From IMG/VR virus record IMGVR_UViG_2850711898_000002: DNA of 64,000 nt; one strand, 5' to 3'. Numbering within the stretch: the first letter of the stretch is position 1; the number at the start of each line of letters is the position of its first letter. Below, in pieces: positions 1 to 54,354 of the stretch. This stretch comes from an uncultured virus (IMG/VR IMGVR_UViG_2850711898_000002). Lineage: Duplodnaviria > Heunggongvirae > Uroviricota > Caudoviricetes. The notes below the pieces were generated by a model that saw only the letters and a list, made by a program, of their open reading frames with translations, did no database searches and was not told the DNA's origin. The position numbers were made by a program, and so were the translations under genes.

Positions 1-1463
1 AACTAGCCGAACCACTTGTGGCGATGGCGTCTATTAAATCAAGAAAATTAGAGGACTTTGAAAATATGCCAAAAGCAATGAAAGACATGTTGTTTAAGCC
101 ACAAGGCAACGCTGGCGCATCCGCACCACAAGCAACACCAACTCCTGCACAACCAGCACCAACTGAACCGGTAAATCAAGCGCCGACAGCTCCGGTAGAT
201 AACACCGCACAAGTGCAGGCTGAATTAAATAAACGTAACGCCGACATTAAAGCGGTATTTGCACCGTTTGGTACTACGCACAATGATTTGTTAGTGGAGT
301 GTTTAGGTGATTTATCAATTACCGCAGATCAAGCCAAAGACAAATTATTAGCAAAACTTGGTGCAGGCACAACCCCAAGTGCAGCAGTAACGCCTTATGC
401 CGATAACGGTAACATTGTTGGTGATAGCGTGAAACAATCCTTATTGGCTCGTGCAGGTATCGACAAAGACAAAGTAAATGCTAAAGACAACGCCTACAAT
501 GCGATGACATTGCGTGAGCTTGCTCGTGCATCATTGGTTGATCGAGGTATTAGTGTATCGGGTCAAAATGCAATGAGCATGGTTGGTTTGGCATTTACTC
601 ACTCAAGCTCTGACTTTGGTCAGATCTTAATTGATGTAGCGCACAAATCCTTGCTTAAAGGTTGGGAAACCGCAGCGGAAAACTTTGATCAGTTTACATC
701 TCGTGGCACATTAACCGACTTCCGCGCGGCGAAACGTGTTGGATTAGGTGACTTTGGTTACTTACCGCAAGTTGGTGAGGGTGAGGAGTACACCTACGGC
801 ACAATCGGCGATGAGGGCGCTAGCGTTGCATTAGCGACTTACGGGCAATTATTTAGTATTACCCGTCAAGCAATCATCAATGACGATATGCACTTGTTGA
901 CAAAAATTCCTGAAAAAATGGGACAAGCGGCACGTGCAACCATCGCTAAATTAGTGTTTGCGTTATTAACTGGTAACGCGATTGCACAAGATGGCAAAAA
1001 ATTATTTGATGGCTCGCACAAAAACTCATTTGATAATGCTGCATTAGATGTGGCCAATATTGATAAAGCAATTCAAATGATGAATGGCTTTGTCAATACT
1101 CGTGGTGAACCATTAGCGATTGAGCCTGATTTTATGTTGTTACCAACCTCACTTTATACTCGTGCTAAACAAGTTCTAGGTTCAGCAAGTGTGGAGGGGG
1201 CTGATATCAATTCTGGCATTATCAATCCAATCCGCGACATTGTGCCGACAGTTAAATCCGCACGTTTACAAGTCGCCAATCCAAAATCTTGGTACTTAAT
1301 CAACAAAGAGGCTATTGAAGTTTCTTACCTTGACGGCATTGATACGCCATACATGGAGCAACAACAAGGCTTCACTGTTGATGGTGTATCTACTAAGGTG
1401 CGCATTGATGCAGGTGTTAACGTGATTGATTACCGAGGCGTTGTAAAAGTTACCAATAAGTAA
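1..1463 (+). CDS. ClpP-like prohead protease/major capsid fusion, 5'-partial
   Basis: Frame is open to the window start; Pro/Ala linker followed by capsid domain (HSSSDF, EGEEYTYGT, ITRQAIINDD, VRIDAGV). Confidence 0.85.
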   Translation, partial: LAEPLVAMASIKSRKLEDFENMPKAMKDMLFKPQGNAGASAPQATPTPAQPAPTEPVNQAPTAPVDNTAQVQAELNKRNADIKAVFAPFGTTHNDLLVECLGDLSITADQAKDKLLAKLGAGTTPSAAVTPYADNGNIVGDSVKQSLLARAGIDKDKVNAKDNAYNAMTLRELARASLVDRGISVSGQNAMSMVGLAFTHSSSDFGQILIDVAHKSLLKGWETAAENFDQFTSRGTLTDFRAAKRVGLGDFGYLPQVGEGEEYTYGTIGDEGASVALATYGQLFSITRQAIINDDMHLLTKIPEKMGQAARATIAKLVFALLTGNAIAQDGKKLFDGSHKNSFDNAALDVANIDKAIQMMNGFVNTRGEPLAIEPDFMLLPTSLYTRAKQVLGSASVEGADINSGIINPIRDIVPTVKSARLQVANPKSWYLINKEAIEVSYLDGIDTPYMEQQQGFTVDGVSTKVRIDAGVNVIDYRGVVKVTNK

Positions 1464-50616: not shown

Positions 50617-52239
50617 ATGGGATTTATTGATAAGGTTAAAAACCTTTTAAAAGGTAATGAAACAGAGCCAACACAAACCGATGATGCAGAAGTAACTGCA
50701 ACGGGGCGTGTATTAGATGATCACCCCTCTGCAAAAATTACGCCTTCAAAATTAAAGCAGATTTTAGAGGATGCCGAAAACGGCGATATTCAGGCGCAGC
50801 ATCAACTTTTCATGGATATTGAAGAGCAAGATAGCAGCATTGCCGCCAATATGATGACACGTAAGCGTTCAGTTTTAACGCTAGATTGGCGTATTGTTGA
50901 ACCACGTAATGCAACCCCTGCAGAAGAAAAATTGCAAGCAGAAATTGATGAGTTATTTTATCAATATCCCAATCTTGAAGACTTGTTTATCAATTTAATG
51001 GATGCCGTGGGACACGGTTTTTCGGCGTTGGAAATTCAATGGGCGCAGGTGGATGGCAAATGGGTTCCAAAAGGCTTTAGACCTTGTCCGCAGTCTTGGT
51101 TTAAATTGGATAAAGACGATAGTTTATTATTACGCACGCCAGCGAATCAAATGGGCGAGCCTTTACGTCCTTTTGGCTGGGTGGTACATCGCCATAAATC
51201 TCGTTCGACACAGTTAGCTCGTGATGGCTTATATCGCACATTGGCATGGCTTTATATGTATAAGCATTATTCTGTGCGTGATTTTGCCGAGTTTTTAGAG
51301 CTTTATGGTATGCCGATTCGCATTGGTAAATATGGTGCTGGCGCCACTAATGCGGAGAAACGCACTTTACTGCGTGCGTTGGCTGAAATTGGGCATAACG
51401 CGGCAGGCATTATGCCTGAATCGATGCAGATTGAACTGCATAATGTCGCTAATGCAGGTGCTGCATCGGGTAATAATCCATTTTTACAAATGGTTGATTG
51501 GTGCGAGAAATCTATTGCTCGGTTGATTTTGGGGCAAACCTTAACATCGGGGGCGGATGGTAAAAGCTCCACCAATGCGTTAGGTAATGTGCATAATGAA
51601 GTGCATCGTGATTTGATGATTAGCGATGCGAAACAGATTGCGCAAACCATTACTCAACAAATCATTTTGCCGTATTTGCAAATTAATGTTGATCCGAATA
51701 TTGCGCCACATCGTATCCCTTATTTTGAGTTTGACACAAAAGAATATGAAGATTTATCGGTCTTTGCAGAAGCCATCCCTAAACTTACCGGCATTGGCGT
51801 GCAGATTTCTGAAAGTTGGGTGCGGGATAAATTAGGAATTCCTGAACCGCAGGAAGGCGAACTGATTTTAAGCACACCGCAAGGCGAGAAAACGGACGAA
51901 AAAACGACCGCACTTTCTGCCGTGTTTAATCACGGCAAAGGCTGTACTTGCGGTTGTCGTGCTGCTGCGTTGTCGGCGCAGAATGGTAAAAAGGACGAAC
52001 AAGATGAATTAGACGGTTTGATTGATGATGCACTGGCAAATGCGGATTTTAATCAACAACTTGATCCTATGATGAAACAAATTGTAGGGGTGGTCATGGC
52101 AAGTGAAAGCTATGACGAAGCACAGGAAAAACTGATCGCACTTTATCCTGATTTAACCAGTGAAAGCCATCAAGCCTATTTGGCAAGTGCGGTATTTTTA
52201 GCTGATTTATTAGGAGCAGCCAATGCCGAGCGCACCTAA
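50617..52239 (+). CDS. Portal protein gp29 (DUF935)
   Basis: ELYGMPIRIGKY, ILGQTLTS, ALGNVHNEV. Confidence 0.92.
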   Translation: MGFIDKVKNLLKGNETEPTQTDDAEVTATGRVLDDHPSAKITPSKLKQILEDAENGDIQAQHQLFMDIEEQDSSIAANMMTRKRSVLTLDWRIVEPRNATPAEEKLQAEIDELFYQYPNLEDLFINLMDAVGHGFSALEIQWAQVDGKWVPKGFRPCPQSWFKLDKDDSLLLRTPANQMGEPLRPFGWVVHRHKSRSTQLARDGLYRTLAWLYMYKHYSVRDFAEFLELYGMPIRIGKYGAGATNAEKRTLLRALAEIGHNAAGIMPESMQIELHNVANAGAASGNNPFLQMVDWCEKSIARLILGQTLTSGADGKSSTNALGNVHNEVHRDLMISDAKQIAQTITQQIILPYLQINVDPNIAPHRIPYFEFDTKEYEDLSVFAEAIPKLTGIGVQISESWVRDKLGIPEPQEGELILSTPQGEKTDEKTTALSAVFNHGKGCTCGCRAAALSAQNGKKDEQDELDGLIDDALANADFNQQLDPMMKQIVGVVMASESYDEAQEKLIALYPDLTSESHQAYLASAVFLADLLGAANAERT

Positions 52240-53524
52240 GTTTGCCATTGGCGTAGAACCCAAACAAGCCATTGAGTTTTTGCGCCAAAAGAAAATGCTT
52301 GCCAGCAAGGTGTTAGTAAAAGAAATGCAGGATAGCGCATTGGCACGTGCCACGACAATTGCGCGCTTAACAAGTCTTGATATGACAAAGGATATTTACC
52401 AATCTTTAGAAACCGCTATGCGTGAGGGCAAAGGCTTTCACGCTTGGAAAAAAGAACTGGTGAGTGAATTTGAACGTAAAGGCTGGATTTTTGGGAAAGA
52501 TCCGTCTATTCGTGGTATTGATGGGCATTTACTGGCAGATCCAAAAACAGGGGAATATTTTGGCACGCCGCGTCGGTTAAATACGATTTATCGTGTCAAT
52601 ATGCAGTCAGCTTATTCGGCTGCACGTTATCAACGCTTGCGTGATAACGTGGATAATCGCCCTTATTGGCAATATTCCGCCGTGGGGGATGCACGTACTC
52701 GCCCTGCCCATTTAGCATTGAGCGGTAAGGTGTATCGTTATGATGATCCGTTTTGGGCGACATTCTATCCGCCTAATGGGTTTAATTGTCGCTGTACGGT
52801 GATTGCGTTAGGCGATAGAGATTTGAAACGCCGTGGGATTGATAAGCCTGACGATAGTTCTGAATTTTTGGTGGAAGTAGAACGCCCTGTGGATAAGCAA
52901 GGTAATCGTGAAAAGACGGTAGGGTTTAAATTACCTGATGGCACGGTACGTGTGACGGATAAAGGCTTTGATTACAATGTGGGGAGATTAAACTACAAGC
53001 CTAATTTAGATCTTTATCCTGAAAAACTGGCGCATGCGTTTGCGAAGGTTGAGATGAAAGGTGGGGAGTTTAAGCACGATTTTGAATTTTTGGCAAAGCA
53101 TGTGGCGGAGATGAAACAAACGCTCAGCCCTGAAGGAAAAAAACTCACTGCTGATCAAATGTTACAGGTGCGTGATAGCCTTACCAAAAATTTTAAATTT
53201 GCAGCAGGTGTCTTGAGTGCGGAAAGTAAGGATTTTTTGAAAAGCAAAACTGGCACAGTGTGGCTTTCTGATGATACTTTAATTAAGCAATTTAATAGCC
53301 GTGATGGGCAAGATTTTGGGATTGATGAGTATGAGGCGTTGCCAGATATCATCAATGCTCCAGATAAAATTGTAGTCGATGAACTAGGATACCAATTTTA
53401 TAAGGATGTTAAGGGTAAGAAACTGCTTGCAGTATTGAAAGTTTTAAGCAAAGAACCAGAAATTTTTGTTCAGTCGTTTAGATTAGTGAGTGATAAGCAA
53501 TGGAGAAAGGCATTTAAAGAGTAA
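52223..53524 (+). CDS. MuF minor head protein with a C-terminal putative PBECR2-like (RNase-fold) extension
   Basis: RLNTIYRVN, RTRPAH, PPNGFNCRC; ~150-aa extension ending VWLSDDTLIKQ..EYEALPDII..IFVQSFR. Confidence 0.82.
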   Translation: MPSAPKFAIGVEPKQAIEFLRQKKMLASKVLVKEMQDSALARATTIARLTSLDMTKDIYQSLETAMREGKGFHAWKKELVSEFERKGWIFGKDPSIRGIDGHLLADPKTGEYFGTPRRLNTIYRVNMQSAYSAARYQRLRDNVDNRPYWQYSAVGDARTRPAHLALSGKVYRYDDPFWATFYPPNGFNCRCTVIALGDRDLKRRGIDKPDDSSEFLVEVERPVDKQGNREKTVGFKLPDGTVRVTDKGFDYNVGRLNYKPNLDLYPEKLAHAFAKVEMKGGEFKHDFEFLAKHVAEMKQTLSPEGKKLTADQMLQVRDSLTKNFKFAAGVLSAESKDFLKSKTGTVWLSDDTLIKQFNSRDGQDFGIDEYEALPDIINAPDKIVVDELGYQFYKDVKGKKLLAVLKVLSKEPEIFVQSFRLVSDKQWRKAFKE

Positions 53525-53620
53525 GCCACTAGGCGGGGCTCGAACCCACCGCACACAGTCCAAGGTACTATTCAACCTATCGCTTGCGATCCTCGAGATT
53601 CATCGCTTTTCTAGTGGCTT
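53523..53620 (-). ncRNA. Candidate tRNA-like small RNA
   Basis: Acceptor-like stem, D-like arm and GTGGG-TTCGAGC-CCCGC T-arm; predicted own sigma70 promoter. Confidence 0.55.
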
Positions 53621-53624
53621 GACG

Positions 53625-53653
53625 ACTATACCCCCTTAAATTTAAAAAATCAA
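53625..53653 (-). promoter_or_regulatory. Minus-strand sigma70 promoter TTGATT-17-TATAGT
   Basis: Plus-strand AATCAA at 53648-53653 and ACTATA at 53625-53630. Confidence 0.6.
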
Positions 53654-53658
53654 CGATT

Positions 53659-54075
53659 ATGATAGACATTGAAATCAATAATGCGCAAGAAGTTACCGCC
53701 TTGCTTGAACGATTAGCGCAAGCCACAGCACATCGTGCGCCTTTAATGCGTAGCATTGCAGGCACAATGGAATCGGCTGTCACGCAGAACTTTGAAGTGG
53801 GTGGTCGTCCTGAGTGGAAGAAATTAAAGCTTCGCCAAGGTACGCCTTTGGTGGATACTGAAAACTTGATGGCGAGCATCACTTCTGAATATAATAACAA
53901 TGAAGCCATTGCGGGGACGAATGAGCCTTACGCAGCTATCCATCAATTCGGGGGTAAAGCTGGACGAGGTCGTAAAGTAGAGATTCCGGCACGTCCTTTT
54001 TTGGCTTTAACACCTCAAGATGAGGCAGATATTTTGGAAGATATACAAGACTACTTCCAACGCTTAATTAAATAA
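53659..54075 (+). CDS. Virion morphogenesis protein G (gp31)
   Basis: GTNEPYAAIHQFGG, IPARPFL. Confidence 0.9.
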   Translation: MIDIEINNAQEVTALLERLAQATAHRAPLMRSIAGTMESAVTQNFEVGGRPEWKKLKLRQGTPLVDTENLMASITSEYNNNEAIAGTNEPYAAIHQFGGKAGRGRKVEIPARPFLALTPQDEADILEDIQDYFQRLIK

Positions 54076-54276
54076 ATCAGAAAATCGCTCTAAATCGCAC
54101 GTAGGGCGATTTTTTACTTTTATGGTATAAGATTTCATCTTTAAATTTTTAAAACAATTTAAAACGGTTTTAAAGCGTTTTAAAATGGGTTTGGGTTGTT
54201 TTCAATCATTCAATCTTTCACGTCTTTAATGTGAGGCTTGTTCCTCATTGTCTAAAATTTCAAATTATTTGGTTGC

Positions 54277-54321
54277 GCTGAAGCCAGTCATCTCTTGTTA
54301 TCTTGTTCAATTCGATATTCT
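54277..54321 (+). promoter_or_regulatory. Candidate activator-dependent late promoter (I)
   Basis: GCTGAAGCCAGTCATCTCTT, with TATTCT starting 39 nt after the motif start. Confidence 0.5.
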
Positions 54322-54354
54322 GAAACCCTAGATTAAGTTTTTAAGAGGTTTCAG

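Follow-up and report, generated by a model that had tools for sequence, protein, structure and literature searches.

What, if anything, stands in for an immunity gene behind a phage head protein that ends in a ribonuclease-like domain? The question is raised by a 64,000-nt stretch of the uncultured Caudoviricetes virus IMGVR_UViG_2850711898_000002 (IMG/VR; the whole stretch is here called the window), in which the late operon of a Mu-like prophage encodes a MuF protein with a C-terminal PBECR3 domain (gene at 52223..53524, plus strand) and, next, the tail completion protein G. An initial annotation of this DNA had remarked that no immunity open reading frame (ORF) follows MuF, and this holds: by ORF list and Pfam, no immunity-sized gene lies between the two, and the next real gene is G. 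The 134-nt spacer between F (MuF) and G is occupied by an RNA gene and its promoter. We find that positions 53620-53523 of the minus strand are a real, selected, structured RNA gene, and that this RNA and the PBECR3 domain form one exchangeable cassette.

The RNA, termed class A below (53523..53620, minus strand, as are all its parts), is about 98 nt long, forms a four-way junction and scores 110.5 bits with our covariance model R1. Its acceptor-like outer helix, P1, joins a 5' arm AAGCCACUAG (53611..53620) to a 3' arm CUAGUGGCUU (53523..53532), the last bases of which overlap the MuF stop codon. Inside P1 lie three hairpins: the D-arm-like P2 (53586..53606), with GCGAU and AUCGC around an 11-nt loop (L2); P3 (53563..53578), in the anticodon-arm position, with AGGU and ACCU around UGAAUAGU and without an anticodon loop; and the T-arm-like P4 (53533..53552), read as GCGG-U-GG / GUUCGAG / CCCCGC and contiguous with P1. 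L2 and the loop of P4 (L4) are joined by a kissing helix, the strands of which are CUCGA (53593-53597) and UCGAG (53539-53543), respectively.

Much of this layout had been anticipated. The minus-strand sequence quoted by the initial annotation (53620 to 53521) reads back identically, and its 10-bp acceptor-like stem, its GCGAT/ATCGC D-like hairpin and its AGGT/ACCT hairpin at the anticodon position all have counterparts that pair in homologues; likewise, neither a CCA end nor a standard anticodon arm is encoded, and the RNA 3' end does abut the MuF stop, the stop codon (53522-53524) touching the P1 3' arm. Its picture of the outer stem stacked on a TTCGA T-arm survives in part, i.e., a T-like P4 is contiguous with P1, whereas the register proposed for that arm (GTGGG/CCCGC) is 68% paired with zero double-sided change, and GCGG(U)GG/CCCCGC is supported in its stead. 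Also discarded was the rod-like, nested minimum-free-energy fold, the inner AUCGCA/UGCGGU helix of which is disrupted in phage SuMu; here, the cloverleaf plus kiss is the supported structure.

Evidence for selection on this fold comes from a MAFFT alignment of 32 RNA copies, 27 of them distinct (A2), which supplies the covariation check proposed in the initial annotation. The fold pairs 94.0% of cells, versus 32.7-37.4% with the partners slid, and 18 of its 30 pairs have changed on both sides; none of 500 shuffles of the alignment equalled the observed pairing. Both-sided changes affect nine of the ten P1 pairs (95% of cells paired), all four P3 pairs, two of the five P4 pairs (96% paired) and three of the six pairs of the L2-L4 kiss (CUCGA/UCGAG, CUCCC/GGGAG, CUCGG/CCGAG). 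P2 is unchanged across the 27 close sequences; divergent copies found with R1 carry it in compensated form (GCGGU/GCCGC, GCAG/CUGC, GUGGU/UCCAC) and add further kissing-pair variants.

These data bear directly on the notion that the element is a decaying, functionless phage tRNA gene, a chance inverted repeat or a miniature inverted-repeat transposable element (MITE). Such an origin would suit a tRNA-like layout that leaves ARAGORN and Rfam empty, as well as terminal arms that are 10-bp inverted repeats, but we consider it scarcely credible given the compensatory changes that affect four helices as well as the loop-loop contact, the conservation of the promoter, and the spread of the element over at least 46 confirmed IMG/VR copies and 22 of 50 genera. 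The alignment is not near-clonal (75-90% identity, with divergent copies down to 23 bits), and copies are mostly single per genome and in the same slot, hence not a dispersed repeat; in the window, the two P1 arms are the sole exact occurrences of the 10-mer.

To what extent, then, is this RNA a tRNA? Its four helices are arranged as in a cloverleaf, the acceptor-like stem runs straight into the T-like arm, and the GGGUUCGAGCCC stretch resembles a T-arm. It departs from tRNA (RF00005) in its 10-bp outer stem, its long junction linkers, its UUAC 3' flank with no encoded CCA, and its P3, which has 4 bp and an 8-9-nt loop in place of a 7-nt anticodon loop on a 5-bp stem (in one copy, L014, that loop is swapped for a GUAA tetraloop, in others for long hairpins). 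Moreover, the "TTCGA" loop is not a conserved T-loop register; it forms one half of the kissing helix made with the D-like loop, such that a 5-6-bp Watson-Crick L2-L4 helix takes the place of the usual D-loop/T-loop elbow contact. ARAGORN detects no tRNA gene in the whole window, and a cmscan of 53300-53900 against Rfam 15 at E<=10 yields no tRNA or other relevant match. A match to a known family or an ordinary tRNA was what the initial annotation had named as speaking against it: the class A RNA has none, whereas related RNAs beside other MuF genes (see below) match RF00005 with at least 29 bits in four of ten loci. Though laid out like a tRNA, the class A RNA is not recognisable as one. From its layout, its position and this tRNA-scoring sister class, we infer that it descends from a tRNA; neither Rfam nor cross-searches with R1 gave a statistical match for this descent. 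Whatever its function, nature offers in the class A RNA a clear case of a tRNA-like scaffold in which the D/T-loop contact has been turned into a covarying helix.

The next issue is which strand is transcribed. Among class A pairs, G.U outnumbers A.C by 23:7 in A2 and by 33:6 in the model-fitted alignment A3, an excess that favours the minus strand. On that strand, the promoter seen in the initial annotation is present at 53625..53653 (-35 TTGATT at 53653-53648, 17-nt spacer, -10 TATAGT at 53630-53625), and its pattern is conserved: TTGnnn-16..18-TAnnnT, ending 0-20 nt before the RNA, occurs in 50 of 55 distinct regions upstream of homologous copies, compared with 25 of 980 random 72-mers. Three of the five copies without this pattern are second members of tightly spaced tandem pairs, implying co-transcription. 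As for transcripts, one RNA-seq run contains six partial reads at 53565-53627, all from the minus strand; it is sister to a library in which plus-strand phage genes yield plus-strand reads. Two raw-read runs derive from a strain with a prophage more than 10% different at 53376-53564, and hence give no depth there. Contig-type RNA-seq data, which are silent on strand and on transcript ends, place short contigs of depth 1737-5072 at 53461-53551, between flanks of depth 352 and 812. At position 53521, contigs of one such run (X1) are divided between G (depth 3020) and A (depth 2510), a hint that the strain expresses the locus from two copies or alleles.

The convergent layout could itself be the function, with the opposed promoter and antisense RNA damping late-operon read-through at F-G, or with the plus-strand complement stabilising the mRNA 3' end. 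The overlap with the MuF stop codon (by at most 13 nt), the high-depth contigs extending into the MuF 3' end and the folding of the plus strand of the element (-34.1 kcal/mol, z -3.1) would all agree with such a regulator in cis. Against it, the G.U excess points to the other strand, the overlap with MuF comprises a few bases only, covariation in the kiss and four helices exceeds what antisense pairing needs, and copies occur in tandem arrays or, as intact orphans, next to non-phage genes (suhB-like, hslU-like); we thus rate this explanation as quite improbable. A plus-strand terminator of MuF was also considered and dropped, since none appeared in the terminator scan.

With what, then, does the RNA travel? 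Of 236 Pasteurellaceae genomes, 38 contain the 116-nt element, most of them in a single copy, and these span 22 of 50 genera; phage SuMu has it as well. At least 46 copies in IMG/VR contigs were confirmed by covariance model (a motif scan there gave 63 pattern matches, of which the model attributes 17 to chance). A PBECR3-type MuF lies directly upstream in 29 of 31 fetched loci. Conversely, R1 finds an RNA copy in 30 of 30 further PBECR3-type MuF loci and in eight of eight more, truncated genes included, so that the co-occurrence check suggested in the initial annotation comes out at 38 of 38; its companion check, on MuF genes lacking the extension, shows the RNA to be absent where the domain is missing or where MuF abuts G (PM105, L123, L125, Mu). 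Relative to the MuF stop codon, the 3' end of the RNA falls between -13 and +9 nt at 45 of the 47 loci.

Over 31 distinct complete loci from related prophages, distances between RNAs correlate with those between PBECR3 domains (Spearman rho 0.53, permutation p <= 0.001), and far less with those between G genes (0.08) or MuF N-termini (0.17). PBECR3 follows the MuF N-terminus at rho 0.31, compared with 0.84 for the middle of MuF and 0.80 for the N-terminus against G. As the RNA tracks PBECR3 but not G, the domain and the RNA move as one cassette within an otherwise co-inherited block, with some contribution from physical linkage; the exchange of a C-terminal domain and its partner independently of the trunk, as in MuF toxins, is thus seen here too.

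Copies of the RNA also occur apart from the cassette. Two intact chromosomal orphans (L008, 112 bits; L026, 99 bits) have no MuF within 1.5 kb and promoter-like sequences that differ from the prophage ones; one follows a suhB-like gene and the other an hslU-like gene (judged from N-termini), and their genomes contain no PBECR3-type MuF when queried with that of the window. In five loci (L056 [G180, 691-1499], L052, L076, L021 and L029), tandem arrays of two to six divergent copies lie between MuF and G, with some copies spaced 1-9 nt apart and lacking their own promoter; these are presumably co-transcribed and then processed. Nine of ten extra array copies are closer to MuF-adjacent RNAs of other genomes than to the MuF-adjacent copy of their own locus. 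Orphan copies and arrays of foreign variants are immunity-like population features. Several decayed prophages, furthermore, have lost all of MuF but its C-terminal part and still keep the RNA, which we take as suggestive only.

Are RNAs peculiar to the MuF type of the window? Outside Pasteurellaceae, PBECR3 domains of MuF that carry an HG motif (see below) are followed by a different convergent RNA, class B, in Gamma-, Delta-, Zeta- and Alphaproteobacterial contigs and in phage RS1 (the locus search with alignment A6 gave 6 genome and 29 viral loci). Class B has a hairpin with a 7-nt loop, reading CUCAUAC in 15 of 26 rows and with CAU at the anticodon position in 21 of 26; all five of its pairs covary, and in one locus (L084) 18 of 19 positions equal those of the anticodon arm of the genomic tRNA-Met(CAT). 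A second hairpin overlaps the MuF stop codon, and long forms add an outer stem. G.U outnumbers A.C by 19:2, and in GC-rich genomes -10 boxes of TATAAT/TATACT type abut the G start codon. The class B model, R2, matches 38 of 58 sources, most of them in its seed alignment or duplicates of the seed; it hits every locus in which the MuF PBECR3 reaches 30 bits, L083 excepted, and gives no match in L123, PM105 and B3, which have no PBECR3, or in L125 (PBECR3 at 27 bits). Overall, no RNA was found in PM105 and L123, which lack a PBECR hit and have a nil or very short F-G spacer, or in L125, with its sub-threshold domain and 2-nt spacer; to B3 (spacer 123 nt), the class B model alone was applied.

Further MuF types in Pasteurellaceae have RNAs of their own. 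Behind true orthologues of Mu gp30 (weak MuF_C and weak PBECR3 hits) there is, in all 12 loci, a tRNA-like gene with a promoter, class C, whose T- and D-loops are canonical. Of ten loci scored with Rfam, four give a tRNA score of at least 29 bits (53.4, 44.3, 32.4 and 29.8), and ARAGORN calls one of the 12, as tRNA-Ile(TAT). A set of 20 further MuF loci comprises eight with PBECR2 (five Pfam-scanned, at 100-115 bits, and three assigned by near-identical C-termini) and 12 with MuF_C-like C-termini (weak MuF_C in six, otherwise no Pfam match), each group with its own minus-strand RNA and all 20 with a minus-strand promoter-like site. In all 12 of the MuF_C-like loci, the RNA is tRNA-like and bears a T-loop. 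In all eight of the PBECR2 loci (L140-L143, L145, L148-L150), it comprises a -10 TATAGT, a body helix CGAGGAA/UUCCUCG and a terminator hairpin; it ends in an intrinsic terminator, the U-run of which overlaps the MuF stop codon, and a match between the terminator loop and the body loop covaries (CUGCCA/UGGCAG to CCGCCA/UGGCGG). There are, then, at least four RNA classes, each with its matching class of MuF C-terminus. No shared sequence is detectable among classes A, B and D, and R1 with filters off reaches at best 10.7 bits (E 0.4) in class B loci and finds nothing in class C; homology between the classes was therefore set aside as lacking statistical support. The absence of R1 hits from 12 "class-2" MuF loci was likewise withdrawn as a negative control, since those loci hold a tRNA-like RNA that R1 does not see. 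Rfam 15 has no relevant match for the class A, class B, PBECR2-linked or "class-3" tRNA-like RNAs.

Sister RNAs that score as tRNA, arrays of diverse copies and a variable arm at the anticodon position could also be taken to mean that these RNAs are tRNA-like counter-defence decoys or tRNA substitutes, directed against host tRNA-cutting defences, with the MuF side being a permissive insertion slot. This strikes us as distinctly unlikely, as it leaves unexplained (i) why the RNA tracks PBECR3 rather than G, (ii) why each PBECR family has an RNA class of its own, and (iii) why the RNA is absent where the domain is absent.

Attention thus turns to the domain. PBECR3 (PF18812) spans residues 325-428 of the window MuF (53195..53506, plus strand), with 62.3 bits against a cut-off of 30 (E 5e-17); the initial annotation had proposed PBECR2, which Pfam does not bear out. 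No PDB entry matches at E<=0.001 in a Foldseek search; the best structural matches are RNase toxins of the RelE and BrnT kinds and of the CdiA-CT kind (7m5f, 6cp9, 6vek, 7vmc). PBECR domains were defined by Iyer et al. (2017, PMC5512222), who predicted RNase or RNA-binding roles for them and noted that BECR toxins often cleave tRNA; a 2026 preprint (10.64898/2026.08.28.747851) places PBECR3 in a colicin-like group. The active site described by Iyer et al. combines a His in the N-terminal helix with a C-terminal Ser/Thr. In six non-Pasteurellaceae relatives, the HG-motif His is invariant, the subfamily reading (K/D)HG(N/D). In the window, the corresponding stretch is SRDGQ, with Asp aligned to that His and Arg one position earlier (class A consensus "nsR.gq"), so that the His is missing, while the C-terminal Ser (QSFR) is conserved in the subfamily; with an alignment uncertainty of +/-1, an Arg-type site is possible.

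A domain of this kind might bind RNA without cutting it. The RNA would then be a cofactor or cargo, which a BECR-like RNA-binding module, perhaps catalytically dead, would place on MuF at the portal, either to assist in building the head or to enter the next host along with the DNA. We hold this to be unlikely, though it has several points in its favour: the HG-motif His is not conserved in the window subfamily, the cassette is co-inherited, minor-head and DNA-pilot functions are annotated for MuF, and the covarying loop-loop complementarity could equally be intermolecular. An RNA-binding role has, moreover, been predicted for the inactive PBECR domain of Mu gp30 (PMC5512222). However, orphan RNAs without a PBECR3-type MuF and heterologous arrays fit protection better than assembly, and the promoter points against late transcription and does not rely on it.

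What we favour, tentatively and at somewhat short of an even chance, is that the class A RNA is an immunity-like decoy or ligand of the PBECR3 domain. An RNA of about 98 nt, derived from a tRNA and made from its own sigma-70-type promoter toward the end of the MuF gene, would serve as the cognate ligand of the domain, its tRNA shape occupying or neutralising it. As the promoter is independent of late transcription, it would act in the producing cell and in lysogens alike, filling the slot held in other MuF toxins by a protein immunity gene. The fold, the strand, the conserved promoter, the position and the co-inheritance are what the sequences show; binding, inhibition and any nuclease activity of this subfamily are inferred. 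Taken together, a selected RNA with its own opposed promoter, the cassette behaviour, the orphans and mixed arrays, and the class-for-class pairing with MuF C-termini are fitted best by an RNA ligand.

Several observations weigh against this reading. With the HG-motif His replaced, the domain may be inactive and an antidote may be unnecessary. The strand-specific reads are thin, the high-depth contigs reach past the modelled 3' end of the RNA, and the scan of the locus shows no intrinsic terminator after P1. The loci behind the cassette correlation are related prophages and no independent samples, and the correlation possibly reflects recombination breakpoints and physical linkage; the RNA 3' arm overlaps the last MuF codons. 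Beyond class A, the rule has exceptions: phage Mu, with a weak MuF_C match in F (21 bits), has no F-G spacer and no RNA. In L083 (G001:C1:1457146-1460472), the third MuF-PBECR3 of the nearest genome compared (HG type, 78.8 bits) is followed by a 143-nt spacer that keeps the ACGU-UUCGG-ACGU hairpin of class B and lacks the 7-nt-loop hairpin; R2 misses it. Finally, as the classes share no detectable sequence, a single common function for them is only assumed.

How would such an arrangement compare with known systems? In type III toxin-antitoxin systems (ToxIN, CptIN, TenpIN), an RNA directly neutralises a protein endoribonuclease and may consist of tandem, co-transcribed units. The likeness lies in the tandem units, three closely spaced tandem copies being without their own promoter here. 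The differences are that a domain of predicted BECR/RelE-like fold, fused to a virion protein, takes the place of a free ToxN-like toxin, and that the RNA, in place of short pseudoknot repeats upstream on the same strand, is a tRNA-derived junction located downstream, convergent, with its own promoter and usually single-copy (single in the window). With MuF polymorphic toxins (Jamet et al. 2017, PMC5576092), the locus has in common a conserved MuF N-terminus, a swappable C-terminal domain, a varying downstream partner, and orphan or arrayed partners; here, by contrast, the small immunity protein just downstream is lacking and the partner is an opposite-strand RNA, of which, outside its supplement, we found no mention in that paper. 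With BECR tRNases (colicin D/E5, CdiA-CT/CdiI; PMC5512222), it shares the PBECR3 assignment and best-scoring neighbours of CdiA-CT/RelE type in the structure search, the known substrates of that group often being tRNAs; it differs in the HG-motif His, in an immunity partner that would be RNA, and in delivery that would be by the phage head. The packaging RNA (pRNA) of phage phi29 is likewise phage-encoded, structured and of similar size, has covarying loop-loop complementarity and associates with the portal vertex; Mu-like phages use a terminase, and we treat this resemblance as a lead only.

The MuF protein with a C-terminal extension is common in Proteobacterial temperate phages, in which the role of the extension ("Ct_MAD" in PMC5576092, PBECR/MuF-C in PMC5512222) was left open. 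Outside the supplements of these two papers, we found in the literature no partner for the extension and no description of these RNAs. Its partner slot holds RNA genes that are unannotated in Rfam and in the phage records SuMu, Pmp9 and RS1, and our data suggest an as yet undescribed kind of RNA "antidote" or partner. Were the RNA an antidote or ligand, RNA-based neutralisation would extend from type III toxin-antitoxin systems to BECR-fold domains and to the logic of polymorphic toxins; this would also explain how phages safely carry a tRNase-like head protein, and the specificity between RNA and protein could be tested through covarying kissing loops, swapped cassettes and orphans. More broadly, RNAs that mimic tRNAs or anticodon arms may be general immunity factors of the PBECR domains on the injected MuF of Mu-like and related phages, one RNA "key" per variant, exchanged as a cassette, with orphan keys in phage-free chromosomes and lysogen arrays of foreign keys guarding against incoming phage nucleases. 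We regard this generalisation as possible but doubtful. It would amount to the first case of RNA immunity against a polymorphic toxin that virions deliver, and to a natural series of a tRNA evolving into a protein-specific decoy, its elbow rebuilt as a Watson-Crick kiss.

The surroundings of the cassette are those of a Mu-like phage. Upstream lies the portal gene (50617-52239, plus strand); MuF (F, minor head/DNA-pilot protein) has 433 aa, with Phage_Mu_F at residues 57-194 (E 7e-28) and 76% identity to SuMu gp28 across the first 200 aa. G (virion morphogenesis/tail completion; 53659..54075, plus strand) is identified by Phage_tail_S (E 1.3e-26), and protease I begins downstream of it, from 54355. 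The ORFs at 53490-53639 (plus strand) and 53577-53909 (minus strand) are mechanical calls, one overlapping the RNA and the other antisense to G. The SuMu record (L002 2711-2911) places a hypothetical protein of 66 aa, gp29, in the stretch from the RNA to G; the window has nothing corresponding. In another Mu-like prophage locus of a Pasteurellaceae genome (L062 5466-5551), the small RNA sRNA-Xcc1 (RF02221) is matched at 73.5 bits against a gathering threshold of 53. The G-I spacer of the window (54076-54354) measures 279 nt; as the Mu record annotates a "gyrase cut site" between G and I (L129 2725-2726), this spacer may be the place of the prophage's central strong gyrase site. Near the end of the portal gene, AAGTGCGGT at 52184-52192 is what we take to be an uptake signal sequence of the Haemophilus type, in keeping with a Pasteurellaceae host.

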